From NCBI GenBank assembly GCA_020718225.1, contig DYSO01000002.1:5361-69360 (forward strand): a stretch of 64,000 bases of DNA, given 5' to 3'. The notes under the pieces are model-generated. The model was not told where the DNA came from. It saw only the letters and a list, made by a program, of their open reading frames with translations, and ran no database searches. The stretch is from Draconibacterium orientale (lineage in GTDB: Bacteria > Bacteroidota > Bacteroidia > Bacteroidales > FEN-979). This document shows positions 12 to 16,121 of the stretch, piece after piece. Every line of letters begins with the position of its first letter. Within the stretch, counting starts at the first letter, position 1. A program made the translations under genes and the position numbers.

Positions 12-153
12 GACAGGTTGGACAGGTTGAACAGGTTAACCTGGTTAACCTGGTTAACCCGGTTTAACATGGTCAACCTGGTTTAACCTGGTCCAACCTG
101 GTTTAACATGGTCAACCTGTTCCAACCTGTTCCAACCTGTTCCAACCTGTCAG
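12..153. repeat. Tandem array A: about 15 units of 9-10 nt. ACAGGTT-type units lie on the left, AACCTGGTT/AACATGGTC units in the middle and AACCTGTTCC units on the right. The ends are reverse complements of each other.
   Basis: Read directly: gacaggttg x2, aacaggtta, acctggtta x2, then aacctgttcc x3, then aacctgtcag. The right end overlaps the TGA stop (150-152, minus strand) of the transposase gene. Confidence 0.9.
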
Positions 154-713
154 TTTTCCAGGATGAACATTTTTATTTTTTCTTCATCTATTTCGGCAGA
201 GAGGTTTTCAGCAAGGGTTTTGCCATTATAAAAATATTTGGCAAGTTCCTCTTTGCAAATCAGACTTGGGCCGGAAGTAACGGTCGATCTGTACGATGAG
301 AACCGGTATCGTGAGTCATCATCGGCAATGCCATGTTTTCGGGCATTTTGATTGATATACCGGATCATTTCATAAAAATAATATTCCCGACGGATTTCAA
401 TACGCTTGAGTTTGAACTGAAACAATTTTCCTTCCTCTCCATTGTGGTTGTTATGCCCTTTGGCGTAAGCGTTGAAAAGTATGGAAAAAGGTCTGTACAG
501 GCTCCCTTCAGCATCACTTTTTATTCGCACCAGTAGATGAAGATGGTCTTTCAGAAGACAATAAGCATAGGTATCGGCAACAGGTGTGATATGCGATCGA
601 TATAGCCGAAGGAAAAACCGGTAATCTTCTTCATCTTCGAACAGTGGACCGCCATTTCTGGCCCGGTTATATATATGGTAATATTTTCCGGGCTCCAATA
701 ATAAAGTTTTCAT
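150..713 (-). CDS. IS200/IS605-type Y1 (HUH) transposase, RAYT-like
   Basis: 187-aa ORF. The HUH motif sits in KDHLHLLVRIK, and the catalytic-Tyr helix motif is MIRYINQNARKHGIA (the Y-x-x-x-N pattern typical of the Y1_Tnp / COG1943 family). It is flanked by repeat arrays. Confidence 0.8.
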   Translation of the reverse strand: MKTLLLEPGKYYHIYNRARNGGPLFEDEEDYRFFLRLYRSHITPVADTYAYCLLKDHLHLLVRIKSDAEGSLYRPFSILFNAYAKGHNNHNGEEGKLFQFKLKRIEIRREYYFYEMIRYINQNARKHGIADDDSRYRFSSYRSTVTSGPSLICKEELAKYFYNGKTLAENLSAEIDEEKIKMFILEN

Positions 714-822: not shown

Positions 823-873
823 AGTTGACCAGGTTGACCAGGTTAACCTGGTTTAACCTGGTTTAACCTGTTA
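823..873. repeat. Tandem array B: 2x GACCAGGTT, a central GGTTAACC palindrome, then 2x AACCTGGTTT. It is an imperfect hairpin.
   Basis: Read directly: agttgaccaggttgaccaggttaacctggtttaacctggtttaacctg, followed immediately by tta, which is the stop codon of the minus-strand gene 871-3840. Confidence 0.9.
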
Positions 874-3840
874 CGGTTTATATACTACCCCCAGGTTCTT
901 TTTTCCGTCTATTGCAATCCGGATGGGTTTTTCGAAGTGGATGTGCCGGAGAAACTCATCTTCATAGGCTGCTGTTTGACCTGCCAGGTATTCAATATCA
1001 TAGAATCCATCGTTGATGAAAGGGTTTACCGTAAAATAGCCCACCCGGAATGAAGTGAGGTTTTGAAAAAAGTGGGTACCCTGGCTTGGGTCAATCCGGT
1101 AATGTTCGAGCCCCGATTCAACAATAAGCCTTGCTGCGCTGATCTGGGGCCATTTAACCGGGATTCCCAGCCATGGATCGCTGGAACCCCAGCGACCGGG
1201 GCCTACCAGTACATAATTTTTTTTCTCTGTTGTGAATTTATCGTTCAGCTTTTCAAGCAGATGAACTATTTCCTGGCTTTTTGAAGCATTAAAATTCTCA
1301 GGTTTTACGTAGACGAAATCGTGGATATTTTTAACGATGCCATTGCCCAGGGCAGTATTTGAAACCAGCAGCATATCTTCTTTACGGATATCTTCCGGCC
1401 GAAGGTTGATGGTTTCATCGCGTCCGGCGATGGGGCGGATCTGAAGCAAGCTGAAAATTTTGGGTTGTCCCTTGGGTAGATCGAGGTTTACCGCAAACTC
1501 AATTTCAACCGGTTTATTCATCTCCCGCTGACCTATTTCCAGCGCCTGGTTAAGAATTTCGGCCAAAGGAAAAGTATCATGATTAAGCAACTGCGAAAAA
1601 GTGATGATCCGTTTTCCATCGAATAAGGTCCCTTCTTTTAGTTGATGGCTCTCAAAATCAAAAGTTGATGCCACCATTTTCAAAGCGTTGTCATTTTCAG
1701 CATCCTTGATCCTCAGTTTCATGAGATTCACGGTATCATCCATGCTTGGTGCAAAACTCTCAGGACGGAGATCGAGGGCAAAAAAAGTTTTCTGTGTTTC
1801 ACTCAAGGCAAGGTCCGGAGTGGATAGTTGCAATATTTTTTTAGGATATTTCGGTGAAAACCGGATACCTATGCCACCATCAACGATATATTTCCCCAAT
1901 CCAAAAGCAATATTGGCAATGCCATCTTCTGGCTTCTCAGGGGCGATTGGATAAAAATTGATGGAACGGGCAACTCCCGAAATAGCCGGATAAAACCGAT
2001 CGCCATACTGGCGGCCGGTGACCTCCTGAAGCACAATCGCCATTTTTTCTTCGTCGATCATGTTAAGGGTCGCTGCCATGTATGATTTGCTATCTTTATA
2101 GTAGGCTGATGCATAAACACTTTTAATAGCATCCCCCAATTTATCGATCATGACCCGGTCGTTAAATTTAATATTTGGGATCATGTAGGTTGAATATATA
2201 CCTGCAAAAGGTTGATAATGTGAATCTTCGAGCAAACTTGAAGAACGGATCGCAATGGGGTTGTTGATACAGGAGATAAAACGGTACAGATCTTCATGGA
2301 TCCGGAAAGGCAACCTTGCTTTGACAAACCGCGCCAGAATATCTTTATCGCTCCGGTCGGAAAGGGCAATTTCATAGAGGTTGTTATCCTCCATAAACTC
2401 ATCAAAAATATCCGTTCCAAGAACCACTGTTCTGGGAATGGAAATAACAACATCCTCATACAGATCGGTAAGCCTGTTCCTTTTGATCAGGGAATCCAGA
2501 AATGCCAACCCCCGTGCTTTTCCGCCAATCGAACCTTCGCCGATACGGGCGAATTGCAGATATTCATCATAGCGGTCGCGGTCGAAATCGGCAATGACCC
2601 CTTTGGCTTTATTGATACGGAAAGCGGTGATGGAATCAAACAAATACCGTTTTGCTTCATCCATATCATTGGCGAATTCGGTTACCGATACTTCTTTAAA
2701 CATCTCGGCAATCGGGAATAAAGAGCGGGCATTCAACCATTTCGAAAAATGGTTCCGTTCCATATGATATAACAGGGAATCGTTCGGGATTTCAAAAATC
2801 TTATCCTGTAGTGATTTCAGGTCTACAGCCCGGGTGATCTCCCTTCCGTTTTTCGGATCGATGAAAATAAAATCGCCAAATGAAAAATATTCATTGATAT
2901 AATTCCGAAGTTCAATGGAAAGTGTTTTGGAAAGTTTGTTCAGGAACCCCACTTTCAGGTCATGGGCCAGGGTTTCGTATTCGGTATCGGTCGATTGAAA
3001 AAGAATGGGCATATAGGCATTTTCTGCACGGACTTTTTCAACGAATTTAATGCCTGCCGTTTTGTCGGTTACCCCGCCCCGCATAAAGCTGATATCGGTG
3101 ATAATCCCCAAAAGGTTTGCCTTATATTTTTCCCACATGCCAACGGCTTCTTCATAGTTGGTAGCAAGTAAAATTTTGCTCCGGCCACGCATCCTTAACA
3201 TTTTCTGGTGCTCGTTAAGGCCTTCGCTTACAGTAGTTTTCGATTGCTTCAGAAGAATTTTGTAAATATTTGGCAAATAGGTTGAATAAAAACGGATGGA
3301 ATCTTCAACCAGTAAGATGGCCTGTACCCCCTGTTTGACATCCTGGTCGATGTTCATTCTGTCCTCAATCAGTTTAATGATGGCCAACAGGATATCGGCA
3401 TTGCCAAGCCAGCTAAACACATAATCGATAGCGCTGAGGTCCTTTTCAACAAGTTTAAGGTTGACTTCGCGTGAAAAGGGAGTGAGTGCAACGATGGGTA
3501 TTGCCGGGTATTTTTTCTTGATCCGGATGGCCAGGTCGAAGGTGTCGGATTTTTCGATGTTCAGCATTGAAATAACCAATTCGACCCGCTTGTCTTCCAA
3601 CACTTCGAAGGCCTCTTCTTCCGAAGTGACTTTGAGAAACTGCGGCGGATAACGCAGGTTTAAAGAAACATATTCCAGAAAAATAGTCTCATCAATGCGG
3701 CCGTCTTCTTCCAGCATAAAAGCATCATAGGTGCTTGAAATAAGCAAGACCTGATATATCCGCCGTTTCATCAGAAGATTAAACGAGGTATCGATAAAGT
3801 AATACTTCTTCGGGTCCAGAACATTCTGTTTGTGCTTCAT
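871..3840 (-). CDS. Signal-transduction protein: pseudo-receiver + receiver + PEP/pyruvate-binding ATP-grasp domain (PPDK_N-like) + conserved C-terminal domain. It has no phosphohistidine swivel or PEP-utilizer TIM domain.
   Basis: 989-aa ORF. The first REC-like domain has VELVISMLNI, with no Asp at the acceptor position. The second has AILLVEDS, LLGIITDISF and PILFQST. ATP-grasp motifs are GGKARGLAFL, IRSSSLLEDS, PFAGIYSTY, and VEIEFAV followed by LLQIRP. The C-terminal domain carries GPGRWGSSDPWLGIPV and SQGTHFFQNLTS. It is a paralog of 10602-14477. Confidence 0.75.
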   Translation of the reverse strand: MKHKQNVLDPKKYYFIDTSFNLLMKRRIYQVLLISSTYDAFMLEEDGRIDETIFLEYVSLNLRYPPQFLKVTSEEEAFEVLEDKRVELVISMLNIEKSDTFDLAIRIKKKYPAIPIVALTPFSREVNLKLVEKDLSAIDYVFSWLGNADILLAIIKLIEDRMNIDQDVKQGVQAILLVEDSIRFYSTYLPNIYKILLKQSKTTVSEGLNEHQKMLRMRGRSKILLATNYEEAVGMWEKYKANLLGIITDISFMRGGVTDKTAGIKFVEKVRAENAYMPILFQSTDTEYETLAHDLKVGFLNKLSKTLSIELRNYINEYFSFGDFIFIDPKNGREITRAVDLKSLQDKIFEIPNDSLLYHMERNHFSKWLNARSLFPIAEMFKEVSVTEFANDMDEAKRYLFDSITAFRINKAKGVIADFDRDRYDEYLQFARIGEGSIGGKARGLAFLDSLIKRNRLTDLYEDVVISIPRTVVLGTDIFDEFMEDNNLYEIALSDRSDKDILARFVKARLPFRIHEDLYRFISCINNPIAIRSSSLLEDSHYQPFAGIYSTYMIPNIKFNDRVMIDKLGDAIKSVYASAYYKDSKSYMAATLNMIDEEKMAIVLQEVTGRQYGDRFYPAISGVARSINFYPIAPEKPEDGIANIAFGLGKYIVDGGIGIRFSPKYPKKILQLSTPDLALSETQKTFFALDLRPESFAPSMDDTVNLMKLRIKDAENDNALKMVASTFDFESHQLKEGTLFDGKRIITFSQLLNHDTFPLAEILNQALEIGQREMNKPVEIEFAVNLDLPKGQPKIFSLLQIRPIAGRDETINLRPEDIRKEDMLLVSNTALGNGIVKNIHDFVYVKPENFNASKSQEIVHLLEKLNDKFTTEKKNYVLVGPGRWGSSDPWLGIPVKWPQISAARLIVESGLEHYRIDPSQGTHFFQNLTSFRVGYFTVNPFINDGFYDIEYLAGQTAAYEDEFLRHIHFEKPIRIAIDGKKNLGVVYKP

Positions 3841-3882: not shown

Positions 3883-4338
3883 TTAATTTTCTCTCAGGAT
3901 ATAGTCATCGTATTCAACTTCAAACCGCAGTTTGTGTTTGGCCTCTTCCTGGGCGAGACTCAGAAATATACTACCGGTCCGGGAATCAGGGGCTGCTTCG
4001 GCTAATTCCGTGTACATCCGGTAGGCGGCCTTTTCCTTTTTCATGGCCAATATCAGGGCATCCTGATAGGTCATGTCCGGTGATGGTTTAATATCGACCA
4101 GGTATTCAGTTATTTTTAAGTCTTTGATTTTGGTCTCTGATAATTGAAAAGAACCATTTTCTTTTACTTTTATCAGATTTACTTTGTGGCGCATCTCCTC
4201 TTCGGCAAAATCGGTAAAGACCTCTTTGCTTTGTCTGCTTTTTGACTGACCGGCTAACATGAGATAAAAATCAACAGCAGCCTGTTCTTCCCCGATTGCA
4301 AAATCGAGGATATCTTCGATTGTTTTAAATTCTTTCAT
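3883..4338 (-). CDS. Rubrerythrin/ferritin-like diiron protein without a rubredoxin domain
   Basis: 151-aa ORF with two E-x-x-H diiron motifs (AEEEMRH, AQEEAKH) plus glutamates in GEEQAAVDFY. It is co-directional with the upstream oxidoreductase genes, with a 29-nt gap. Confidence 0.65.
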   Translation of the reverse strand: MKEFKTIEDILDFAIGEEQAAVDFYLMLAGQSKSRQSKEVFTDFAEEEMRHKVNLIKVKENGSFQLSETKIKDLKITEYLVDIKPSPDMTYQDALILAMKKEKAAYRMYTELAEAAPDSRTGSIFLSLAQEEAKHKLRFEVEYDDYILREN

Positions 4339-4367: not shown

Positions 4368-7300
4368 TTATTCTACTGAAAAGGCCTTATTGAATTCCTC
4401 ATCGAATCTTTTCACCAATGCGTCGCACCCATGCTTGAACAGTTTGATATGATTATCGCCGTCAGTGGGTTGCAACGTGTGTTTTTCATGGTCTCTTTTT
4501 CCGGGAAGAAGGGCAATGGCTTCCAAAAAAACATCCTGGGGGTTATCGGCTGCCGGCAATCCAAGCCGGTTGATTATGGAAGACAGTTGTTCCAGGGAAG
4601 TCATGGTTATCTTCGATTTTAACCCGGGATGAAACTCCTGTATCACTTTCTGTGTATTGGTATAGGAGCCACCAGTTTCGACCGGCATGGAAGCGGGCAG
4701 TATTAAATCGGAAGCCATGGCTGTCGGGGTCAGAAAATAATCCTGAACCACTTTAAAAGGCGCTTTCTCAAAAATGTCCTGAACGGTTGTGCTGTCTACC
4801 GCACAACCCATGGGGTCCTCACCGAAAATAAACAAATTTCTGATCCTGCCTTCCATTAATTGTGCATGAAGTGGTTTGGACACACCTCCTGCAATGTTTG
4901 CGGTTTTCCATTGTTCCCGGCATCGTTGGGCAAAGGCTTCATCTGACAGATCCTGGCCTCCGATACCCTTTTCCGGTACAATTCCCATATCAAACAAACC
5001 GTGTGCGTTGTTTTTCTCCTTTAATGAGATGATCCCGTTGGCGGTCTTTCCAAGTTTCCCGGTAATACAGGCAAGATTAAAAATCTCTTTACTGGTATTG
5101 GCTGAAATCTCCTTTTCCGAAAACAAGATGATGGCATTCATTTCCTTGTTATAAGATTCGGCAAAATCAGAAATTTCCCCTCCGGCAATTCCCGATTTCA
5201 TGACCAGATGTTCATAATCCTCCTGCAACAACCCGTTTTTATAGCCTTCCAGTCCTGTTACCCGGTCGTTGAGGAAAAGTCTGTTTTCCAATCCGTGTGA
5301 AAGCAGATAGTGGTTAACCGCTCTGATGAAATAATAATATGATTTTATGGTGAGCAGCCCATCCACTTTATGTGCCATGGTATGGCACTCTTTTTCAGTG
5401 ACCATGATTACCGGCGTTTTCTTCAGATAACGTGCATGCTGTACCATAAACCCCACCACCGCATGATCCTGGTTTATCTCCGTCCCTATGAGGTAGAGTT
5501 TACTGGCATGGGATATCTGGTCAAAAGGCACATTGTATTCGCTGTTGCTGCGATACCCTTCGCCTCTGCCAAGATAATGAAAACTACCGACATTATTTGT
5601 TTTTACAGCCCCCCGTGCCAGCTTCTGTATCATATACAATTCCTCATTTGATAAACGGGCGCCGCCAAAAAATGCATTTTCATCAGGTTTAGCCAAACCA
5701 ATCTTTTCAACAATCACTTCAATGGCTTTTTCGAATGTGATGGTTTCAAATTTGCCATCGACCTTCATTAAAGGTTTAGTAATTCGCTGTTTATCATTGA
5801 AGTATGAATAACCAAAAGCTGCATATTTGCATAGGTTCCCATCGCTGTTTACCAATCCGTTCCGGCCGGTTACACGCATTACAAAACCATTTTTATGGTG
5901 GAGGGTCAAAGCGCATCCAACAGAACAGTAATTGCAGATAGTATCGATGGTATCGGTTTTAACAGGGCCGGGTTTAAACAGGACATTTTCGGAAATAGCT
6001 CCGGTAGGACAGGTTGAGATACACAAACCGCAGGATTCGCAATGGGTGTTTTGGAGAGAATCGCCCATACTTGGGGCAACATAGGTGTCGAAGCCCCGGT
6101 TGATCAACCCAAGGGCATTGGCCCCTGCCACTTCGCGGCAAATCCGGATGCAGCGGGCACAGAGAATACATTTGTTATTGTCGATCTCAACATAAGGATG
6201 GCGAAAATCAACCGTATATTCTTTGAATTCACCGGAATAGGCAGTTTGCCGGGCTTCATACTCTGTAGAATAACGCTGGAGGCTGCAATCAAAAAAAGCG
6301 GTGCAGCCACATTCGAGACACCTTTGGGCTTCGTGTCGGGCCACCTCTTCATTGGAATAGCCCAATTCCACCTCTTTAAAATTAATCCTCTCATTGGCTG
6401 GCAACACAGGCATCTCCTCGCGAAGCTGAAACGCATAATGTCCCTGAAAATCTTCTTTAACCTGTTTCTTAAAATGGTCTCGTTTACTGGTAAATGGTTT
6501 GGGAACGGGCAACATGGGCAATCCCATCAGAAATTGATGGGCGCTGGTTGAGGCAATCCTGGCCTGAGCAATGGCCGCGATGATGGTAGCCGGTCCGGTC
6601 ACCCCGTCGCCGGCGGCAAAAATGGATGAGACCCCTGTTTGCAGGGTTGCTTTATCGGTATCGATATCGCCCCATTTATTGATCTTCAATTCCCCGTTGG
6701 ATGTATTCTGGTTGATATCATGGATAAAATCAACGTCTGTTTTCTGGCCAATGGCAGCCAATATATAATCCACATTCAGTTCGAAATCTGAACCTTCAAC
6801 AGGGACAGGTCTCCGACGACCTGAGGTATCGGGTTCTCCCAATTCCATTTTGATACAGGTAACCGATTGCACTTCACCCCGTTCATTTTTATTGATTTTT
6901 TTGGGTAAGGTAAGAAAAAGATACTCCACCCCTTCCAGTTTGGATTCATGAATTTCTATGGGATTGGCTGGCATCTCCTTTTCCGTCCGGCGATAAATCA
7001 CATATACCTTATCGGCATGGCAGCGAACCGATGTCCGGCAACAATCCATAGCTGTATTTCCGCCTCCCACGACCGCAATGGTCTTCCCCCGGAAATCGTA
7101 GTGTTGGCCGGTAACTTCCATGTTTTTTAAGAAATCGATACCCGAAAATACATTTTCCGCGTCATCGCCTTCACATCCAACCCCGGTCCCTTTCTGGGAA
7201 CCTATGGTGAGAATCAATGCATCATACTTTTCTTTCAGCTCCTTATAGCTCAGGTTGCCACCCAACCGCTGGTTATAAAAAATCCGGACACCCAGGTCGG

Positions 7301-8072
7301 TAATATTTTTTACCTCCTCATCCAGGATGTCATTCGGTAAACGATATTCCGGGATTCCATACCGAAGCCATCCACCGGATTTTGGGGCAGCTTCATAAAT
7401 ATCCGCCTGATGACCTTCAATCTGCATAAAATGGCCGGTTGACAAGCCGCCCGGGCCTGCCCCGATGACAGCAATCCGTTTTCCTGTAGAAGGTTTTACG
7501 ACAGGGATATATCTATTTGGAGATGTCAGGTCATAATCCGATGCAAACCTTTTCAGATAATCAATCCCAACAGGGGCTCCTTCATCCAGAAGGTTGCGAC
7601 GGCATTCGGCTTCACAGGGACGGACGCATACCCGGCCACATATGGCAGGCAACGGGTTTGTCTCCTTAATAAGGGCAACCGCCTCACGATACAGTCCCTT
7701 ATCGATCAAGGAAATATAACCCTGAACATCCACCCCGGCAGGACAAGTTTGTTTGCAGGGGCCTATGCAATCAGCATAATGGTTGCTCAGCATGAGTTCC
7801 AACGCCATCCGGCGCGATTTCCGGATGGCTGCATTGTCGGTAACGATTTTCATCCCTTCCGTAAGTTTCGTGGAGCATGAAGGTTGATGCCCGCGCATCC
7901 CTTCCACTTCGACAACACACAGGTAGCACGAAGTAAAAGGTTCGAGACGGTCGTCGTTGCATAAGGTGGGAATATCAACGCCATGCCGCTTTGCAAGGTC
8001 AAGGATGGTCTCTCCGGAAAACCCCTTTACGATATTTCCGTTCAGAATGATATTTAAAGAATTGTCAGCCAT
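4368..8072 (-). CDS. Multidomain Fe-S flavoprotein: [2Fe-2S] ferredoxin + GltD/NfnB-like NAD(P)H/FAD module + 2x[4Fe-4S] + molybdopterin-oxidoreductase-like (NuoG/FdhA-like) domain
   Basis: The start is taken at MADNSLNI (ATG 8072), because the 37 codons upstream only translate the heptamer array. Motifs: CNDDRLEPFTSCYLC ([2Fe-2S]); CGRVCVRPCEAEC; RIAVIGAGPGGLS (FAD); IAVVGGGNTAMDC (NAD(P)H); AAGDGVTGPATII; CILCARCIRIC and CESCGLCISTCP (ferredoxin-type clusters); CNYCSVGCAL followed by NLCKYAAFG (MopB Fe4S4 domain). Confidence 0.75.
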   Translation of the reverse strand: MADNSLNIILNGNIVKGFSGETILDLAKRHGVDIPTLCNDDRLEPFTSCYLCVVEVEGMRGHQPSCSTKLTEGMKIVTDNAAIRKSRRMALELMLSNHYADCIGPCKQTCPAGVDVQGYISLIDKGLYREAVALIKETNPLPAICGRVCVRPCEAECRRNLLDEGAPVGIDYLKRFASDYDLTSPNRYIPVVKPSTGKRIAVIGAGPGGLSTGHFMQIEGHQADIYEAAPKSGGWLRYGIPEYRLPNDILDEEVKNITDLGVRIFYNQRLGGNLSYKELKEKYDALILTIGSQKGTGVGCEGDDAENVFSGIDFLKNMEVTGQHYDFRGKTIAVVGGGNTAMDCCRTSVRCHADKVYVIYRRTEKEMPANPIEIHESKLEGVEYLFLTLPKKINKNERGEVQSVTCIKMELGEPDTSGRRRPVPVEGSDFELNVDYILAAIGQKTDVDFIHDINQNTSNGELKINKWGDIDTDKATLQTGVSSIFAAGDGVTGPATIIAAIAQARIASTSAHQFLMGLPMLPVPKPFTSKRDHFKKQVKEDFQGHYAFQLREEMPVLPANERINFKEVELGYSNEEVARHEAQRCLECGCTAFFDCSLQRYSTEYEARQTAYSGEFKEYTVDFRHPYVEIDNNKCILCARCIRICREVAGANALGLINRGFDTYVAPSMGDSLQNTHCESCGLCISTCPTGAISENVLFKPGPVKTDTIDTICNYCSVGCALTLHHKNGFVMRVTGRNGLVNSDGNLCKYAAFGYSYFNDKQRITKPLMKVDGKFETITFEKAIEVIVEKIGLAKPDENAFFGGARLSNEELYMIQKLARGAVKTNNVGSFHYLGRGEGYRSNSEYNVPFDQISHASKLYLIGTEINQDHAVVGFMVQHARYLKKTPVIMVTEKECHTMAHKVDGLLTIKSYYYFIRAVNHYLLSHGLENRLFLNDRVTGLEGYKNGLLQEDYEHLVMKSGIAGGEISDFAESYNKEMNAIILFSEKEISANTSKEIFNLACITGKLGKTANGIISLKEKNNAHGLFDMGIVPEKGIGGQDLSDEAFAQRCREQWKTANIAGGVSKPLHAQLMEGRIRNLFIFGEDPMGCAVDSTTVQDIFEKAPFKVVQDYFLTPTAMASDLILPASMPVETGGSYTNTQKVIQEFHPGLKSKITMTSLEQLSSIINRLGLPAADNPQDVFLEAIALLPGKRDHEKHTLQPTDGDNHIKLFKHGCDALVKRFDEEFNKAFSVE

Positions 8073-8085
8073 TGGGATAAGTATT

Positions 8086-8131
8086 GGTGAGGGGTGAGTG
8101 GTGAGTAGTGAGTGGTGAGTGGTGAGTGGTG
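8086..8131. repeat. Tandem array C: 6.5 units of the heptamer GGTGAGT
   Basis: Read directly: ggtgagg ggtgagt ggtgagt agtgagt ggtgagt ggtgagt ggtg, then tta, the stop of gene 8132-9907. The array ends 13 nt before the next start codon at 8072. Confidence 0.9.
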
Positions 8132-9907
8132 TTATGATAGTAAGATAGCATCGAACTTGCATTTTGAGTAGCAAACGCCGCATTTCGTACAGATATTCTG
8201 ATTGATTGTGTGGGGTTGTTTACGTTCTCCTGTGATGGCTTGTACCGGGCAGTTTTTCAGGCAAACCATACAGCCCGTGCATTTTTCGGTATCTACCCGA
8301 TAGGTCAACAAAGGTCGGCAAACCTTTGCCGGACATTTTTTATGGCGGATATGGGCTTCATATTCATCGCGAAAATAACGGATGGTAGTCAATACCGGGT
8401 TGGGGGCTGTTTGCCCTAAACCGCATAACGAATTTTCTTTAATCTGAAAGGCCAGTTCTTCCAGTTTTTCGATATCCCCTTCCTGACCCTGTCCATTGGT
8501 TATGCGATCGAGGATTTCCAGCATCCGTTTGGTCCCCATCCGGCAGAAAGTACATTTACCGCAACTTTCTTTACGGGTAAAGTCGAGAAAAAATTTTGCC
8601 ACATCCACCATACAGGTAGTTTCATCCATAACCACCATTCCTCCCGATCCCATAATGGCACCTGTGGCATTGACCGAATCATAATCAATGATGGTATCGG
8701 CCAGGAATTCGGGGATACAACCACCCGATGGGCCTCCCATCTGTACCGCTTTAAACTTTTTATCGTTTTTTATCCCCCCCCCAAGCTTAAAGATGACCTC
8801 CCGGATGGTCATTCCCATGGGGACTTCAACAAGTCCTGAATGACGTATTTTTCCGGCCAATGCGAAAACTTTGGTCCCTTTGCTTTTTTCGGTTCCGTAT
8901 TGTGCATACGCTTCGGCACCGTTCATGATGATCCATGGGATATTGGCAAAGGTCTCCACATTATTGATGTTGGTGGGCTTTTTCCAAAGACCGGAAACTG
9001 CCGGAAACGGAGGCCGTTTGCGGGGCATTCCGCGTTCGCCTTCGATGGAGGCGATCAGGGCCGTCTCTTCACCACAAACAAAAGCGCCTGCCCCCTCTTT
9101 GATATAAATATCGAAATTAAACTCTTCTATTCCGAAAAGATTTTTTCCGAGATAGCCCCTTTCATGAGCCTGTCGGATGGCAATATTTAACCGCTTGATG
9201 GCAAGCGGATATTCAGCGCGGCAATAGATTACACCTCCTGTGGCGCCGATGGCATAAGCAGCGATGACCATCCCCTCAAGTACCAAATGGGGATCGCCCT
9301 CCAATACAGAACGATCCATAAAAGCGCCGGGATCACCCTCATCGGCATTGCAAATAATATATTTTTCGGCCGATTTATTGGCATGGGCAAATTTCCATTT
9401 CATCCCCGTGGGAAACCCACCGCCCCCACGACCACGCAACCCCGACCTGAGAACCGTATCAATCACCTCTTCCTGCCGCGTCTTTTCTGCGGCAATTTTT
9501 TTTATCGCCAGATACCCTTTCCGTTTTTCATAATCGTCGATGGATTCAGGATCCATATACCCGCAATTCCGGAGTACTATTTTAACCTGGGATTCCAGGA
9601 AATCATTTTCGGGAGCATCAAATAAATCGGTATAAACAATATAATCGCGAATGGGATCGTGCTGATTGATGTGTTTTTCGATGACTTCGATGGCGCGATC
9701 GGCATCTACCTCCCCATACAGATAGGTCCCGGTATCATCGGTAATCTCAACCAAAGGCTCACGGTAACACATGCCCACACAACTGGTTTTCCGAAGTTCA
9801 AAATGTAAGTTTTCGGTCTCCTTTAGCGCCTGGATCTTTTCAAAGGTCTTTTTTGCACCGGCAGCAATGCCGCAACTTCCAAGACCAACTGTGACGGTAG
9901 GTATCAT
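8132..9907 (-). CDS. NuoF/HydB-like NADH-binding FMN/Fe-S subunit with an N-terminal thioredoxin-like [2Fe-2S] domain and a C-terminal 2x[4Fe-4S] ferredoxin domain
   Basis: 591-aa ORF. Motifs: GLRGRGGGGFPTGMKWKF (FMN/NADH site), ESCGKCTFCRMG (N3-type cluster), CTGCMVCLKNCP and CTKCGVCYSKC, and an N-terminal GLGSCGIAAGA followed by CVGMCYREP. Confidence 0.85.
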   Translation of the reverse strand: MIPTVTVGLGSCGIAAGAKKTFEKIQALKETENLHFELRKTSCVGMCYREPLVEITDDTGTYLYGEVDADRAIEVIEKHINQHDPIRDYIVYTDLFDAPENDFLESQVKIVLRNCGYMDPESIDDYEKRKGYLAIKKIAAEKTRQEEVIDTVLRSGLRGRGGGGFPTGMKWKFAHANKSAEKYIICNADEGDPGAFMDRSVLEGDPHLVLEGMVIAAYAIGATGGVIYCRAEYPLAIKRLNIAIRQAHERGYLGKNLFGIEEFNFDIYIKEGAGAFVCGEETALIASIEGERGMPRKRPPFPAVSGLWKKPTNINNVETFANIPWIIMNGAEAYAQYGTEKSKGTKVFALAGKIRHSGLVEVPMGMTIREVIFKLGGGIKNDKKFKAVQMGGPSGGCIPEFLADTIIDYDSVNATGAIMGSGGMVVMDETTCMVDVAKFFLDFTRKESCGKCTFCRMGTKRMLEILDRITNGQGQEGDIEKLEELAFQIKENSLCGLGQTAPNPVLTTIRYFRDEYEAHIRHKKCPAKVCRPLLTYRVDTEKCTGCMVCLKNCPVQAITGERKQPHTINQNICTKCGVCYSKCKFDAILLS

Positions 9908-9988
9908 TTTTTATGTTGTTAAATTTTAAAATGTGAGGTGCTGGCTTTTATATTTTTGTTAAGCCCCCGGTGATTTGTCACTTGATTT

Positions 9989-10510
9989 TCAACCTGCTTT
10001 CTCGTTTAACCGGATATTTTTTACAATTTTTACTGCTTCATTGCCTGTGAGTTTCCCATATGTCTGGTCACCAATCATCATAACCGGGGCAAGGGAACAA
10101 CAGCCCAGACAGGCTACCGATTCGAGGGTATAGAACCGGTCGTCGGTGGTTTGTCCATCCTTAATTCTCAATGCTTCTTCGAGTGACTCACTGATTTCCA
10201 ATGCATTTTGGACATGACATGCGGTTCCATGACAAACCTTAATAATGTATTTTCCTACCGGATGAAGCCTGAATTGGGCGTAAAATGTTGCCACCCCGAA
10301 CAAATCGCTCAAGGGGATCGCGGCATCTCTGGAAATTTTTTCAAAAACAGCTTTGGGAATATGCCCAAAAAGCTCCTGGGCGCCCTGTAAAAGGGGAATA
10401 AGGTTTCCTTTCTTCCCTTTATATTTCACAATCAGGGGATCAAGCAAACTCAGTTCAAGGCCATCACTTTCAATGACCTTATCGATAGAATGTATCCGGA
10501 CAACACGCAT
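9989..10510 (-). CDS. NuoE/HydC-like thioredoxin-like [2Fe-2S] ferredoxin subunit
   Basis: Cluster motifs are CHGTACHV and CLGCCSLAP. The start is taken at MRVVRIHS (ATG 10510), because the 55 upstream codons overlap array D and the 3' end of the upstream gene. Confidence 0.8.
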   Translation of the reverse strand: MRVVRIHSIDKVIESDGLELSLLDPLIVKYKGKKGNLIPLLQGAQELFGHIPKAVFEKISRDAAIPLSDLFGVATFYAQFRLHPVGKYIIKVCHGTACHVQNALEISESLEEALRIKDGQTTDDRFYTLESVACLGCCSLAPVMMIGDQTYGKLTGNEAVKIVKNIRLNEKAG

Positions 10511-10557: not shown

Positions 10558-10601
10558 CACCTGTCCAACCTGTCCACCTGTCCAACCTGTCCAACCCGTT
10601 C
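10558..10601. repeat. Tandem array D: 5 units of C(A)ACCTGTC, ending in CAACCCGTTC
   Basis: Read directly: cacctgtc caacctgtc cacctgtc caacctgtc caacccgttc, then tta, the stop of gene 10602-14477. It lies 47 nt upstream of the nuoE-like start. Confidence 0.9.
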
Positions 10602-13600
10602 TTACTTTTCCTCTTCCCAGGTAATGACCGAAATACGTTTCTTTCCGTCCATTCTGATACAGAGCGGGTGGTCAAAATGGATGATTGAGAAAAAATCTGT
10701 TTTCCTTAGATTTTTCTGGCTTTTTAAAATATCATATCGGATAAAACTGTTGGTCAATTCAGGCTGGATGCAAAAGTAACCCACATTCATAGAGGTTACA
10801 TTATGGAAAAAATGAGATCCTGACGAGGCATCGAGTGGAAATCCTTCAAGGCTGGTTTCGACAATGATCTTGGCATGGCTGATCTGAGGCCATGCAACCG
10901 GGATACCAATCCAGCGGTCGCGTGTGCCCCATCGTCCCGGGCCAATCAGGACATAATTTTTTCCCTCTCTTCCCATCTCAGCATTAATGGTATCAATCTC
11001 CGCCGCCATTTCAACGGTCTTCGATTTGTCGAAGGTATCCGGATCTACAAAAATTACATCGTAAATATTGTCAATCAATCCGTTGCCCATCTCTTTTTCA
11101 GAATACAGAAGGATTTGGTCCCGGTTGATCTTCTCCATATCAATATGAAAATCGGTAGCATTGCCGATCAGTGGTTTTATCTGAAGCAGATAGAAAGAAG
11201 CTTTATTATCGTCATCCTTGTTCAGATCGATGGCAAACTCCATTTCCACCGGTGAACCCAGCGCCTCTTTGACTACATCGAGCACCACTTCAATGGTTTT
11301 TGCAAGGGGAATATAGTTGTATTTTAAAATATCGGCAAAGTTGAGTACCCGCGGGCCGCCATCGCGTAATCCGGCAGTAATCCGATCATTTTCAACGGAA
11401 TAAACCGAAGCGCAGTGCTTCAGGGTCCCATGCATTTCGGCATCGTAGATATCCATTTTCCGAAGGCCGGCATCTTCGCCTTCCAACAGGTTCATCTCCT
11501 TTTTTTGCAGATCCACGGCATAAAAATAGACCTGCGACCCTTTGTACTGATCCTTTGGCGAATTGATTTCAAGAGTTGGATACAAGGGTGAAAAACGGAA
11601 TGCCTTTTCTCCCTCAACCACATAGCGTCCAAGGCCTAATGCAATTACGGCAAACCCCTCTTCGGGTTTCATATGGGCAAATGGATAATAATTATAGGAT
11701 TGGGCAACTCCGCTGATATGTGGATAGTACACATCGGCATATTGGTTTCCGACGACCTCCTGGATTACAACGGCCATCTTTTCCTGCTCTATGCGATAAT
11801 TAACCGCTTCGATGTACCCCTTGGCAATGGGGGAATACACGGAAGCATAAACCAGTTTGATTGCATCCATCAATTGATCAAGCCGCACTTTTGGGTCCGG
11901 ATGACAATTGGGGATCAGGTAGGTTTCGAAGATTCCTGCAAAAGGCTGATTAAGAGAATCTTCAAAGAGTCCGGAAGAACGTATTGCCAAAGGCTTCGTG
12001 ATATTTTTAATGATTAATTTCAACTTCCGGATAAGGGTTTCTGTGAGCCTGCCTTCCAAAAACCACCTTTTTATCTGGTCATAATCTGACTCATAGACTG
12101 CTTTTTCCCTCAATTTATTCCTGTCAAGGAAATATTCAAATTCATCGGTACCCACAATGGAGGTTTTCGGGGTACGGATTTTAATGTTGGGGATGTGTTG
12201 AGAAAAATCGTAATTGTATATTAACGTGTTGATAAAAGCGAGCCCGCGTCCTTTTCCCCCCAACGCCCCTTCGGTCAGCGCCAGGATATTACGTTCGTCG
12301 GATATAGCCGATTCCTCAAAAGGGATCACCTTCCCGGTATTTTGTTCGTTGCGGAAATGCTGGATCACATTGATGAGGTATTCGCGTAACGAAGTCGGAT
12401 CTTTAAAATCGGTCACTTTTGCCGGGTTCAGTATCTTGGCAACCTGAATTTCTCCACGGGCCATCAGCCAAAGGGAGAAGTGGTCTTTCCGTGCATGATA
12501 TAAGAGAGATTCTTCCGGGATGGTCTTTAGTAAATCCTCAAATTCTTTCAGCGAACGTGCAACAGCGATCTGGGTACCCTCCTGATCGCGATAAATAAAA
12601 CTGCCAAATCCCAGATAATGGGTAATGAAACTTTTAAAATCAAGAAGCAGGGTTTCTGAATTTTTATTAATAAAAGAGGCTTTTAATTCATATGCTCTCT
12701 GGGCATTAATTTCATCGGACGACTGCATCACAATGGGAAGGTCTTTAATCTCCTTCCGGGTCTGCCTGACCAGGCTGAACCCCGCCGTATTGTTCAGTTT
12801 GCCATCCTTTTTAAATTTCACATCTGAAATGAGACAAAGGATAAAGTCTTTGTACTTGTTAAAAATATAGAGGGCCTCTTCATAAGTTGAGGCCAATAGA
12901 ATTTTCGGTCGTGCTTTCAGTCTGAGGATGCGGTACAATTCATCGGTAGTAACATCCTCAATGATGTTTTTAGTCTGTTCCAGCACGATATTGTACAACA
13001 TCGGAAGGTATAATGAATAATACTTTGAGGAATCTTCTACCAGCAGGATGACCCGTGTCATGCCAATGGTGGTATCGTTTTCCACATTGATTTTGTCTTC
13101 CAGATAGTTGATCATTGCGAAGAAGATCTTGGAATCGCCATTCCAGACAAAAATCCGGTCGACCCAGGTCAGTTTTTCAGGTTCTTCTTCATATTTAGCG
13201 ATCTCTGTATTGCTGTTCAATAAAAGGAATACGGGAATATACTGATATTTTTCCTTGACGGTTTTACTCAGTTCTACCGGGAATTGTTTATCCGTACCGA
13301 TCATGATGATGATCAGGTCGTAATGTTTCAGACTGAGTTGTTCCATTACCTCACCGATCGTTGATACACCGGTGATCCGTGGCATGGTACTCAGGCTCAG
13401 TGCATAAAATTCCCCCAGTACATGTTCTGAAAAACGGCCTTCCTTTTCGATGCTATAAGCGTCATAGAGATTGGCGACCAATAATATCTCTTTGACTTTA
13501 AAAGGCATCAGGTCATGATACAGGTCGCGGTTATAGTTGGTACGATTTAAAAAGGTCTGGAGGAGTTGACGGCTGTATTTAACCGGGCCGGAAGCATCCG

Positions 13601-14477
13601 GTTGGGGTTCCGTCACCTCTTTCTGTACCGTTTTCCGCAGGATGGCCTTACCTTTAATAGAATTCAGATAACCGGCGATCAGGTTGGCCAGATTGATAAT
13701 AAGATGGCGCTCCTCTTCAAGGAAAGGTCCTTCAAATTGTGGGGGAAATGCTTTCAGGTAACAAATCTCAATAAACCCCGAAAGGTTGTCAATGGTTTCG
13801 AAAGGTTGAATCTGGGCCCACTGGGTTTCAACGAAACCCGGACTTATAAGTTCGAGGTTCCCATATTTAATACGGCATACCGTATATTCGGGATATTGCC
13901 AGGCCGTAGGCAGGATCAGGCAGATTTGGTGAAGGGCCTCTTCATTTGGTTTCCCTGCGCGAAGGATGGCAGTGGTCTGGTTAATGGCGCTGAGTTCCTT
14001 TAGTCTTTCCCGGGTAATGTACCGCCCCTCCCTGCCTTTTACCGCGTTGAGGTACCCTTCAATCAAACTGGCCAGGTTCAGTATTAAATGGCGCTCTTCT
14101 TTCAAAAATGGCCCCTCATCTGCCTCGGGAAATTCTTTCAGATAAAAAACCTCAATAGAACCAGTGAGGCTGTCGATGGTTTCAAAAGCCTGTAATTGTC
14201 TCCATTGTGTTTCCAGAAATCCCTGACTTGTAAATTCCATCTCTTCGTAACGTATCCGCGCTACTGCATGTCCTGGATATTGCCAGGCATGCGGCAGAAG
14301 CTGACAAATCTCAAAAAGGGTTTCGTAAACAGGTTTATTGCCCCTGATAATAGCAGCTGTTTCATTAATCGCGGCCAATTCTTTGAGCCGTTCCTGATTA
14401 TCATAAGCCAGCTTTTCAAAACTGCCGGAACCCGGGCCGGAGATTACTGAGTTTAATCCTTTATCGTTTGTCAACAT
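10602..14477 (-). CDS. Sensor/signal-transduction protein: 2x duplicated N-terminal GAF-like sensor domain + pseudo-REC + REC + PPDK_N ATP-grasp + conserved C-terminal domain
   Basis: The ATG at 14477 (MLTNDKG) is preferred over the TTG at 14501. The two 120-aa repeats begin ERLKELAAINET and ERLKELSAINQT. The pseudo-REC has YDLIIIMIGTD. The REC has VILLVEDS, LCLISDVKF and VMQSS. ATP-grasp motifs are GGKGRGLAFI, IRSSGLFEDS, PFAGIFETY, and VEMEFAI followed by LLQIKP. The C-terminal domain carries GPGRWGTRDRWIGIPV and SSGSHFFHNVTS. Confidence 0.75.
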   Translation of the reverse strand: MLTNDKGLNSVISGPGSGSFEKLAYDNQERLKELAAINETAAIIRGNKPVYETLFEICQLLPHAWQYPGHAVARIRYEEMEFTSQGFLETQWRQLQAFETIDSLTGSIEVFYLKEFPEADEGPFLKEERHLILNLASLIEGYLNAVKGREGRYITRERLKELSAINQTTAILRAGKPNEEALHQICLILPTAWQYPEYTVCRIKYGNLELISPGFVETQWAQIQPFETIDNLSGFIEICYLKAFPPQFEGPFLEEERHLIINLANLIAGYLNSIKGKAILRKTVQKEVTEPQPDASGPVKYSRQLLQTFLNRTNYNRDLYHDLMPFKVKEILLVANLYDAYSIEKEGRFSEHVLGEFYALSLSTMPRITGVSTIGEVMEQLSLKHYDLIIIMIGTDKQFPVELSKTVKEKYQYIPVFLLLNSNTEIAKYEEEPEKLTWVDRIFVWNGDSKIFFAMINYLEDKINVENDTTIGMTRVILLVEDSSKYYSLYLPMLYNIVLEQTKNIIEDVTTDELYRILRLKARPKILLASTYEEALYIFNKYKDFILCLISDVKFKKDGKLNNTAGFSLVRQTRKEIKDLPIVMQSSDEINAQRAYELKASFINKNSETLLLDFKSFITHYLGFGSFIYRDQEGTQIAVARSLKEFEDLLKTIPEESLLYHARKDHFSLWLMARGEIQVAKILNPAKVTDFKDPTSLREYLINVIQHFRNEQNTGKVIPFEESAISDERNILALTEGALGGKGRGLAFINTLIYNYDFSQHIPNIKIRTPKTSIVGTDEFEYFLDRNKLREKAVYESDYDQIKRWFLEGRLTETLIRKLKLIIKNITKPLAIRSSGLFEDSLNQPFAGIFETYLIPNCHPDPKVRLDQLMDAIKLVYASVYSPIAKGYIEAVNYRIEQEKMAVVIQEVVGNQYADVYYPHISGVAQSYNYYPFAHMKPEEGFAVIALGLGRYVVEGEKAFRFSPLYPTLEINSPKDQYKGSQVYFYAVDLQKKEMNLLEGEDAGLRKMDIYDAEMHGTLKHCASVYSVENDRITAGLRDGGPRVLNFADILKYNYIPLAKTIEVVLDVVKEALGSPVEMEFAIDLNKDDDNKASFYLLQIKPLIGNATDFHIDMEKINRDQILLYSEKEMGNGLIDNIYDVIFVDPDTFDKSKTVEMAAEIDTINAEMGREGKNYVLIGPGRWGTRDRWIGIPVAWPQISHAKIIVETSLEGFPLDASSGSHFFHNVTSMNVGYFCIQPELTNSFIRYDILKSQKNLRKTDFFSIIHFDHPLCIRMDGKKRISVITWEEEK

Positions 14478-14690
14478 CGGGAAATGGGATGGAAATGCCA
14501 AAATTAAAATAATTCTGTTATCAATTTGTAAGATAATGACGACTTTTATAAAGTTCAGTATAATTCGTACTCTTATATACGCAGGATACGTATGTATTGT
14601 AAGTGCATTTCTTATCTAATTGAATAAGAATTAATTATATTTCAATTTATGGTAATTTTTACATCGTTGCATTAAAATATTAGTTAATAT

Positions 14691-14762: not shown

Positions 14763-16121
14763 ATGAACAATGACATGTTAAAAAAGTTAATTGACGAATT
14801 CATGGCAAACATCATTGCTAAAAATCAGGGTGAAAAAGAATTTCATCAGGCTGTAATGGAAGTTGCCGAATCGCTGATCCCATTCATTGAAGAGAATCCG
14901 AAGTACAAGCAGGCTAAGATCCTGGAACGGATGGCTGAACCCGAAAGGGTGATCATCTTCCGGGTACCCTGGATGAACGACAAAGGGGAAATACAGATTA
15001 ACCGTGGCTATCGGATTGAAATGAACAGCGCTATTGGCCCCTATAAAGGTGGTTTGCGCTTTCACCCGACGGTGAATTTAGGAATTTTGAAATTCCTGGC
15101 TTTCGAACAGGTATTAAAAAACAGCCTGACCACATTGCCAATGGGTGGTGGTAAAGGCGGCAGCGACTTCGACCCAAAAGGGAAAAGCGACAATGAAGTG
15201 ATGGCTTTCTGCCAGAGTTTTATGACCGAATTGCAGCGGCATATCGGACCCGATACCGATGTACCTGCCGGTGATATTGGCGTTGGCGGCCGTGAAATCG
15301 GCTTTATGTTTGGACAGTACAAGCGTTTACGCAACGAGTTTACAGGTGTCCTAACAGGTAAAGGATTGGAATGGGGAGGCAGTTTGATCCGTCCCCAAGC
15401 AACAGGTTACGGTCAGGTTTATTTTGCTGAGGAGATGCTCAAAACCCGCGGACTCGATTTCAAAGGAAAAACGGTGCTTGTCTCAGGAAGCGGTAATGTT
15501 GCCCAGTATGCAACCCAGAAAGTAACCCAGCTGGGAGGAAAAGTTGTAACCCTTTCCGACAGCGAAGGTTATATTCATGACCCCAAAGGCATCGATGCCG
15601 ACAAGCTGGCTTTCGTAATGCATCTGAAAAACGTGAAACGCGGACGTATCAAAGAGTACTGCGAAAAATATGCCGAAGCAACCTTTGTCCAGGGTAAACG
15701 GCCATGGGAAGTAAAATGCGATATCGCATTACCCAGCGCTACACAAAATGAAATCGACGGCAACGATGCCCGTACCCTGATGGCCAACGGATGTATGTGT
15801 GTTTCGGAAGGGGCCAATATGCCATCAACCCCGGAAGCCATTGAGATTTATATTGCGAAAAAAATCCTTTATGGCCCTGGTAAAGCAGCAAATGCAGGTG
15901 GTGTAGCCACTTCAGGACTTGAAATGTCGCAAAATTCAATGCGTCTTTCCTGGACACGCGAAGAGGTTGACCAACGACTCCATACCATCATGGTTGACAT
16001 TCATAAAAATTGTGTGAAATGGGGAACCGAGCCCGATGGGTTCATCAATTACGTCAAAGGGGCCAACATCGGTGGTTTTGTTAAAGTTGCTGATGCAATG
16101 ATGGCACAGGGACTGGTATAA
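14763..16121 (+). CDS. gdhA: NAD(P)-specific glutamate dehydrogenase
   Basis: 452-aa ORF with the hexameric GDH family signatures GPYKGGLRFHP and LPMGGGKGGSDFDPKGKS, and the Rossmann motif VSGSGNVAQYA. Confidence 0.95.
   Translation: MNNDMLKKLIDEFMANIIAKNQGEKEFHQAVMEVAESLIPFIEENPKYKQAKILERMAEPERVIIFRVPWMNDKGEIQINRGYRIEMNSAIGPYKGGLRFHPTVNLGILKFLAFEQVLKNSLTTLPMGGGKGGSDFDPKGKSDNEVMAFCQSFMTELQRHIGPDTDVPAGDIGVGGREIGFMFGQYKRLRNEFTGVLTGKGLEWGGSLIRPQATGYGQVYFAEEMLKTRGLDFKGKTVLVSGSGNVAQYATQKVTQLGGKVVTLSDSEGYIHDPKGIDADKLAFVMHLKNVKRGRIKEYCEKYAEATFVQGKRPWEVKCDIALPSATQNEIDGNDARTLMANGCMCVSEGANMPSTPEAIEIYIAKKILYGPGKAANAGGVATSGLEMSQNSMRLSWTREEVDQRLHTIMVDIHKNCVKWGTEPDGFINYVKGANIGGFVKVADAMMAQGLV

Follow-up and report, generated by a model that had tools for sequence, protein, structure and literature searches.

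The closest described relatives of the locus treated here are the bifurcating transhydrogenases known as NfnABC, Nfn-Bfu or StnABC. They have been studied in Sporomusa ovata (StnABC, the Sporomusa-type Nfn; PDB 8OH5/8OH9; Kremp 2020; Kumar 2023), in Caldicellulosiruptor saccharolyticus (9BOV/9BP5; PMC11829005) and in Thermococcus sibiricus (9N5U; PMC12018979). The large subunit StnC has 1172 amino acids (aa) and consists of a [2Fe-2S] domain (residues 1–101), a GltD fold (102–565), clusters of the NuoG type and an FdhF-like domain without catalytic activity (683–1172); besides flavin adenine dinucleotide (FAD) it binds six [4Fe-4S] clusters and a single [2Fe-2S] cluster (PMC10482914). Its residue K170 is strictly conserved among StnC proteins and is replaced by a glutamate in NfnL. 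NfnA of C. saccharolyticus (1178 aa) has N-terminal, NfnL-like and Fdh/NuoG-like domains with the [2Fe-2S] cluster A1 and the [4Fe-4S] clusters A2–A7; the site for the pterin is incomplete and contains none (PMC11829005). In the FMN (flavin mononucleotide) subunit the motifs AFM and GGPSG are conserved across Bfu enzymes and are missing from non-bifurcating relatives (T. sibiricus paper, PMC12018979). Nfn-Bfu corresponds to BfuB clade 53, in which Bacteroidetes members are listed (Schut et al. 2022, PMC9304861). Our literature search for NfnABC together with Bacteroidetes returned no paper, and the sole mention found is one sentence in Schut 2022. Here we analyze a stretch of 64,000 nucleotides (nt) from Draconibacterium orientale (contig DYSO01000002.1), called the window in the following; all coordinates are positions in this window. 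It carries three genes, nfnC, nfnB and nfnA, and behind them a gene for a rubrerythrin-like di-iron protein. Judged from its sequence, nfnCBA is very probably a Bacteroidales orthologue of the known NfnABC transhydrogenase.

According to the list of open reading frames (ORFs) and their translations the four genes are co-directional on the (-) strand, in the order NuoE-like subunit, NuoF-like subunit, large subunit, rubrerythrin-like protein. The gene nfnC (9989..10510; = stnA, BfuC; P0003) codes for a NuoE-type [2Fe-2S] subunit of 173 aa (Pfam 2Fe-2S_thioredx, E 1e-46). The ligands of its cluster C1 are C93, C98, C134 and C138, which satisfy the CX4C...CX3C pattern. The FMN/NAD(H) subunit of 591 aa is encoded by nfnB (8132..9907; = stnB, BfuB; P0002). 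Pfam recognizes the domains Complex1_51K and NADH_4Fe-4S as well as a C-terminal 2x[4Fe-4S] dicluster domain, and there is a weak match of the N-terminus to a thioredoxin-like [2Fe-2S] domain. This N-terminal domain contains the B5 site (C12, C43, C47). The [4Fe-4S] cluster B1 is coordinated by C449/452/455/495, the B2 site comprises H519/H522/C525/C530, and the C-terminal clusters B3/B4 are assigned to ferredoxin. The motifs AFM and GGPSG are found at residues 195–197 and 391–395.

The large subunit of 1234 aa is encoded by nfnA (4368..8072; P0001). The longest ORF extends further to position 8183 (1271 aa), and the added 37 N-terminal residues are a translated heptamer repeat. Because the homologues have a length of 1233–1236 aa and the extension is a repeat array, we place the start at the ATG at 8072. 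The tandem array itself (8086–8131) lies between nfnB and nfnA and contains about 6.5 copies of ACTCACC on the coding strand.

Residues 1–95 of NfnA (7788..8072) form a [2Fe-2S] domain (Fer2_4, 5–80) whose A1 ligands C38, C49, C52 and C66 are conserved in comparison with 9BOV_A. Then follows a GltD/NfnL-like NADPH-FAD module (residues 96–560; 6393..7787; Fer4_20, 104–182; Pyr_redox_2, 199–504) with the two [4Fe-4S] clusters A6 and A7, for which C102, C106, C110, C149, C153, C157 and K174 serve as ligands. The stretch from residue 561 to 704 (5961..6392; Fer4_Nqo3, 626–693) comprises a linker and three [4Fe-4S] motifs, namely A3 (C585/588/590/596) and A2 and A4 (C635/638/641/645 and C678/681/684/688), all cysteines being conserved with respect to 9BOV_A. 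The C-terminal part (residues 705–1234 and the stop codon; 4368..5960) corresponds to domains I–III of a formate dehydrogenase (Fdh)-like MopB protein. It is recognized as Molybdop_Fe4S4 (708–759) and Molybdopterin (763–1153) and contains the [4Fe-4S] cluster A5 (C713/716/720/748); Molydop_binding is not among the Pfam domains of NfnA. A preliminary description of this DNA, made from the letters only, had listed three co-directional genes with these domains, the motifs GAGPGG and GGGNTAMD in the large subunit, and a rubrerythrin-like gene next to them. The Pfam analysis confirms every domain, the motifs are located at residues 204–209 and 336–343 of NfnA, and the rubrerythrin-like gene is present as well. 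Only the count of two ferredoxin-type clusters between the GltD-like and the MopB part has to be corrected to three [4Fe-4S] motifs, to which the MopB part adds its own cluster.

As a stand-in for a phylogenetic tree with the named HydB, StnB, NfnB and SfrAB proteins we ranked the bit scores of a sequence search against the PDB. All three subunits place the solved Nfn-Bfu/Stn complexes 8OH5, 9BOV and 9N5U first. For NfnA the scores are 765 bits (9BOV), 718 bits (8OH5) and 614 bits (9N5U), followed by NfnL with 310 bits, and formate dehydrogenases reach at most 265 bits, confined to the C-terminal half. The alignments with C. saccharolyticus NfnA (query residues 17–1034 and 1072–1196) and with StnC (query residues 6–878) are colinear, and the cysteines assigned to the [2Fe-2S] cluster and to the six [4Fe-4S] clusters of NfnA agree with those of both proteins. 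K174 aligns with K170 of StnC (8OH5_C), with K170 of the C. saccharolyticus protein (9BOV_A) and with the corresponding lysine of T. sibiricus (9N5U_A), whereas the NfnL chains 4YLF_B and 5VJ7_A have a glutamate at this position. The NfnC subunit scores 182 bits with 9N5U_C, 175 bits with 9BOV_C and 162 bits with StnA (8OH5_A); other NuoE-type chains score 151 bits or less. For NfnB the best match is 8OH5_B with 894 bits and 65.7% identity over 586 columns, then 9N5U_B (873 bits) and 9BOV_B (870 bits), as against 613–763 bits for HydB of bifurcating hydrogenases, 417 bits for FdsB and 403 bits for Nqo1.

The scores of NfnB also bear on the question whether the complex bifurcates at all. It could be a non-bifurcating NADPH:ferredoxin or NADH:NADP+ oxidoreductase which merely reuses NuoEF-like subunits, as has been proposed for Geobacter SfrAB. 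NuoEF-like modules indeed occur also in NAD-dependent formate dehydrogenases and in Nqo, and SfrAB-type proteins have the GltD-like and Fdh-like parts in common with NfnA. However, NfnB possesses the extras of the Bfu enzymes, with a thioredoxin-like domain at its N-terminus, a 2x[4Fe-4S] domain at its C-terminus and both motifs, AFM and GGPSG, and its 870–894 bits with NfnB/StnB contrast with 403–417 bits with Nqo1 and FdsB. We therefore consider a non-bifurcating enzyme improbable. Two further candidates were rejected. In NfnSL (NfnAB) the proximal ligand is a glutamate and not a lysine, and no NfnS-like gene is present within the cluster according to the ORF list and Pfam. The GltD-like module does not represent a glutamate synthase small subunit, as there is no gene for the large subunit nearby and as the Stn-type lysine and the Bfu partners are present.

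Several observations, most of them on the Fdh-like domain, weigh against orthology with NfnABC. When residues 705–1234 are used on their own as a phmmer query, YjgC/ForCE1 (8RQZ_C, 184 bits) and FdhH (162 bits) come before StnC (132 bits) and C. saccharolyticus NfnA (119 bits). The structural comparison gives the same order. With Foldseek, the AlphaFold2 (AF2) model of the domain, which has a predicted local distance difference test score (pLDDT) of 88, reaches a template modelling (TM) score of 0.83 with 8RQZ_C and 0.80–0.82 with FdhH, and of 0.76 and 0.75 with 9BOV_A and 8OH5_C, respectively. Further, the FDH-type motifs KNNxxGxxDMG, GEDP and VQD...T.TA..AD.ILP are invariant in the family alignment, so that a residual ligand-binding role of the domain is conceivable. 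Finally, no transcript evidence was found; the sequencing runs that contain the stretch are all DNA metagenomes, taken from aquifer, biofilm, lake, soil and cave.

The fold similarity with a TM score of 0.83 and the several FDH-type motifs which are kept could also indicate a working formate dehydrogenase (Fdh-Bfu type) or another Mo/W enzyme in which the MopB domain is catalytic. Moreover, homologues of NfnA are named "formate dehydrogenase major subunit" or "molybdopterin-dependent oxidoreductase" at JGI and NCBI. However, in the alignment with FdhH of Escherichia coli, selenocysteine 140 is replaced by glycine, His141 by arginine and Arg333 by lysine, and in the alignment of 32 family members the position equivalent to selenocysteine 140 is variable. 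The Fdh-alpha profile is matched only over positions 1–498 of 672, from which we conclude that domain IV (Molydop_binding), which caps the pterin, is missing. The homologous domain of C. saccharolyticus NfnA is without pterin (PMC11829005). A catalytic MopB domain thus appears most improbable. Going by the residues and by the missing domain IV, the Fdh-like domain would have no catalytic site, and we predict that the pterin is absent as well. Recognition of the orthologue corrects the database names given above.

We then queried a collection of 1.84 billion representative proteins with NfnA's Fdh-like domain. Among its matches at 25–31% identity, other proteins of the length of NfnA alternate with formate dehydrogenases that measure about 890 aa. 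The Fdh-like domain in this lineage is a better-preserved remnant of a formate dehydrogenase than the Firmicute ones; both a function and a slower decay are possible reasons. All four A5 cysteines are kept throughout the 32 family members. An NfnA-like sister family and several shorter relatives (P0277 with 1199 aa, P0248, P0254 and P0260) do not have these cysteines, and their Fdh-like domain is more degenerate. Thus, the side branch is dispensable in some lineages but is strictly kept in the lineage studied here.

Taken together, the best matches of all three subunits are characterized NfnABC/StnABC proteins, and in this respect the preliminary description, which had proposed a Bfu/Stn-type complex, is borne out; its guess of a transhydrogenase-like role is consistent with the same matches. 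It had further viewed the third subunit as an unusual and possibly undescribed variant. This view has to be given up, since the domain order is the same in StnC with its 1172 aa and in NfnA of C. saccharolyticus with its 1178 aa. Likewise, there is no new merger of the Stn and Sfr arrangements, as StnC already combines [2Fe-2S], GltD-like, Fe-S and inactive FdhF-like parts in one chain. A bona fide formate dehydrogenase with an intact site had been named as one outcome which would contradict the proposal; we find instead that the catalytic residues are replaced and that domain IV is missing. Within the NfnABC/StnABC family, a large "fusion" subunit of this kind is the usual one. The architecture is also abundant. 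There are 4747 matches, and the best 120 of them all measure about 1233 aa, are at least 68% identical, have the same Pfam set and are annotated as proteins of Bacteroidales or Bacteroidota metagenome-assembled genomes (MAGs). Because the architecture is already published and abundant, we regard the operon as an uncharacterized orthologue and not as a novel variant. On its own the operon matters little, as it adds an orthologue to a family for which three cryo-EM structures are available.

The gene order is well conserved. We scanned a genome collection for NfnA with at least 50% identity and obtained 63 loci, which stem from MAGs of Bacteroidales (Prolixibacteraceae, Draconibacterium, Lentimicrobiaceae), Ignavibacteria and Kapaibacterium. 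In the following fractions the denominator is the number of loci which could be scored for the respective neighbor. The gene nfnB is found directly upstream of nfnA in 53/53 loci, and the order C-B-A is kept.

The gene behind nfnA is the point worth following. In the window it starts 29 nt past nfnA (3883..4338; P0004) and codes for a ferritin/rubrerythrin-like di-iron protein of 151 aa (Pfam Rubrerythrin, 61.7 bits). In 47/52 loci a rubrerythrin-like gene is located on the same strand within 1.2 kb downstream of nfnA, with a median gap of about 40 nt. The predicted di-iron ligands E18, E48, H51, E102, E132 and H135 are invariant in 25 orthologues, and across the loci L004–L067 the metal ligands and the C-terminal tail EYD..(V/I)L(R/K)EN are nearly invariant. 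The AF2 model (pLDDT 83) is a four-helix bundle whose best fold matches are the rubrerythrins 1B71 and 1RYT, with TM scores of 0.71–0.73 and weak E-values. The protein contains no cysteine and no rubredoxin domain; we therefore call it ferritin/erythrin-like and not a canonical rubrerythrin. Behind the S. ovata operon lies pabAB and no rubrerythrin-like gene. The di-iron partner gene is thus lineage-specific.

In the representative search we also found a protein of 757 aa (P0246) with an N-terminal rubrerythrin-like domain, which is 28% identical to the 151-aa protein (E 4e-18). The rest of P0246 is a 2x[4Fe-4S]/A5/Fdh-like module with 45% identity to residues 618–1231 of NfnA. This fusion of rubrerythrin, Fe-S and Fdh-like parts is confined to three clusters, and two of the three fusion proteins (P0393 and P0394) retain all six di-iron ligands. 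The fusion genes code for 754–757 aa and are located downstream of a complete nfnCBA (L072:8001-10274, L073:9001-11274 and L074:9001-11265). All three loci have the order nfnC, nfnB, nfnA, a 294-aa gene, the fusion and a 151-aa gene. In L073 and L074 only, two more genes are inserted between the 294-aa gene and the fusion, one of them PyrK/NfnS-like (274 aa) and the other GltD-like (about 603 aa). The set in these two loci, which are rare relatives outside the window, is a second, split and Sfr-like copy of the NfnA halves, and it comes nearest to the Sfr-type arrangement considered in the preliminary description. As a Rosetta-stone case, the fusion hints at a cooperation of the di-iron protein with the Fe-S/Fdh-like module, and hence at its use of the "dead-end" clusters of NfnA.

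Tentatively, the bifurcating transhydrogenase could thus be extended to a four-component enzyme, in which the 151-aa partner drains the branch A2-A4-A5 for the reduction of H2O2 or O2. Besides being a transhydrogenase, the complex would thereby act as a self-protecting NAD(P)H/ferredoxin peroxidase. Such an extension, which we rate as possible but rather unlikely, draws on the position of the di-iron gene about 40 nt after nfnA in 47/52 loci of Bacteroidales, Ignavibacteria and Kapaibacteria, on the six invariant ligands together with the rubrerythrin-like fold, and on the A5 cysteines, which are invariant in 32 members. It also draws on the three relatives that have a rubrerythrin-like domain joined to a 2x[4Fe-4S]/A5/Fdh-like copy beside a full nfnCBA. 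In C. saccharolyticus NfnA the branch A2-A4-A5 has been called a dead-end remnant or an overflow pool (PMC11829005), and for these authors A4-A5 is a dead-end branch of unknown use. In addition, a rubrerythrin-linked Bfu class has been predicted by Schut et al. 2022 (PMC9304861).

There are, however, several points to the contrary. The 151-aa protein has neither a cysteine nor a rubredoxin domain through which electrons could enter, and the purified Stn and Nfn-Bfu enzymes consist of three subunits. In 5/52 loci an adjacent di-iron gene is missing, and the fusion is rare with its three clusters. Co-transcription for a general protection against oxidative stress accounts equally well for the synteny. 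It is therefore with considerable doubt that we put forward the specific proposal that the Nfn-Bfu of the Bacteroidota and Ignavibacteriota has a dedicated fourth component, a cysteine-free di-iron protein which sits on the Fdh-like domain and reduces peroxide or oxygen by way of A2-A4-A5. If this should be true, the "remnant" Fdh-like domain and the A4-A5 side branch would gain a function, and the link of rubrerythrin with Bfu enzymes, so far a prediction, would have its first concrete case. The di-iron gene behind nfnA, near-universal in this lineage, and the rare fusion deserve attention.

For the three-subunit transhydrogenase we suggest the following mechanism. The electron path is drawn by homology to the cryo-EM structures, and activity, direction and oligomeric state are likewise predicted. 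NADP(H) would bind and react at the FAD in the GltD-like module of NfnA. From there single electrons would pass via A7, which would be coordinated by three cysteines and K174, to A6, A3, A2 and A1 and then via B1 of NfnB to the FMN. The site of bifurcation would be formed by the FMN together with B1 and C1, the [2Fe-2S] cluster of NfnC. NAD(H) would react at the FMN and ferredoxin at the C-terminal clusters B3/B4 of NfnB. The Fdh-like domain would be a non-catalytic scaffold which bears the A4-A5 side branch. The overall reaction would read 2 NADPH + NAD+ + 2 Fd(ox) <-> 2 NADP+ + NADH + 2 Fd(red) + H+, where Fd is ferredoxin. We expect a protomer to contain 40–42 Fe, with the value set by the occupant of B5, Zn or [2Fe-2S].

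In a fermenting anaerobe the reaction would most likely run toward NADPH, with NADH and reduced ferredoxin reducing NADP+. Anabolic reactions would draw on this NADPH, among them that of the glutamate dehydrogenase encoded next to the operon. The gene of this NADP-specific enzyme, gdhA, is divergently oriented (14763..16121, (+); NCBIfam NF006929, 773 bits at a cut-off of 536), and about 23 related loci likewise have it upstream. Its product is a likely consumer of NADPH. The location of gdhA beside the operon, here and in the relatives, thus fits a role in NADPH supply. In this way the operon indicates how Bacteroidales of sediments, aquifers and lakes may balance NADH, ferredoxin and NADPH.

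The other neighbors are given as context only. Upstream of nfnC lies a gene for a PPDK_N (ATP-grasp) protein of about 1292–1299 aa (10602..14501, (-); Pfam PPDK_N, E 1e-39), and an orthologue of about 1292 aa is present upstream on the same strand in 33/49 loci. On the downstream side there is a paralogue of 989 aa with a receiver domain (871..3840, (-); Pfam Response_reg and PPDK_N), found in 16/43 loci. In one clade two paralogous receiver/PPDK_N genes flank the operon on both sides. The best family matches of the receiver/PPDK_N proteins are weak and point to phosphoenolpyruvate synthase, PigC and rifampicin phosphotransferase. Locus L002 shows a 4-nt overlap between the downstream gene and the rubrerythrin-like gene, an indication of a single transcript. 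Scans of the window for promoters, terminators and the Bacteroidetes -7 box (TAnnTTTG) gave hits at chance level; the operon boundaries are therefore drawn from spacing and synteny alone. With the motif count of the window at chance, there are two candidates for a -7 box, TAATTTTG at 14499–14506 (-), where the upstream PPDK_N gene starts, and TACTTTTG at 10771–10778 (-) about 260 nt before nfnC. A second tandem array (10558–10601) with GGACAGGT(T)-type units on the coding strand is located between the PPDK_N gene and nfnC. At the left end of the window (150–713, (-)) we note a gene similar to RAYT, the REP-associated tyrosine transposase (NCBIfam NF047646, 44 bits, below the cut-off of 80). 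The region from 16 to 64 kb contains typical Bacteroidota genes (proteins with a type IX secretion system (T9SS) tail, TonB receptors, UbiD, a hybrid kinase), none of which bears on the enzyme.

How does the complex compare with the known systems? With StnABC of S. ovata it shares the gene order nuoE-like, nuoF-like, large subunit, as well as the domain order of the large subunit, the complement of six [4Fe-4S] clusters and one [2Fe-2S] cluster, and the lysine ligand (K170 = K174); NfnB and StnB are 65.7% identical. Unlike in StnC, the Fdh-like domain is divergent, so that the phmmer alignment ends at residue 878, and two positions are exchanged, as NfnA has a valine for C114 of StnC and Cys145 where StnC has an isoleucine. 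Also, the host is a Bacteroidales bacterium and not an acetogen. NfnABC of C. saccharolyticus provides the best overall match of the large subunit (765 bits) and has the same set of clusters A1–A7, including the side branch A2-A4-A5, and an Fdh-like domain, which is pterin-less there. The B5 site holds Zn in C. saccharolyticus and [2Fe-2S] in S. ovata, and our sequence is compatible with either. Unlike in the C. saccharolyticus protein, the Fdh-like domain is closer to true formate dehydrogenases. T. sibiricus NfnABC is highly similar with respect to NfnB (873 bits) and NfnC (182 bits) and shares the lysine ligand in the GltD-like module. It differs in its NfnA, which at 963 aa is about 270 aa shorter, has one cluster fewer and lacks the tetramer-making helices; the enzyme is a monomeric heterotrimer.

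NfnSL of Thermotoga maritima and Pyrococcus furiosus (4YLF/5JCA) has the overall reaction in common with the proposed activity, and NfnL is homologous to residues ~104–517 of NfnA (310 and 274 bits). However, NfnSL has the PyrK-like partner NfnS, bifurcates at FAD and not at FMN plus clusters, and uses a glutamate instead of the lysine ligand. With the Rub-Bfu class of Schut et al. 2022, which is only predicted, our locus shares a rubrerythrin-family gene that adjoins the Bfu genes. This class (predicted type 4) was rejected as an assignment, because it is without BfuA and has the rubrerythrin gene right behind bfuB, whereas here a full NfnA (BfuA) sits between nfnB and the di-iron gene. Geobacter SfrAB distributes a GltD-like NADPH module and an Fdh-like module over two subunits and has no NuoEF-like core. 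By this description our complex is set apart from SfrAB, as its modules are united in one polypeptide, as in StnC, and stand alongside BfuBC.

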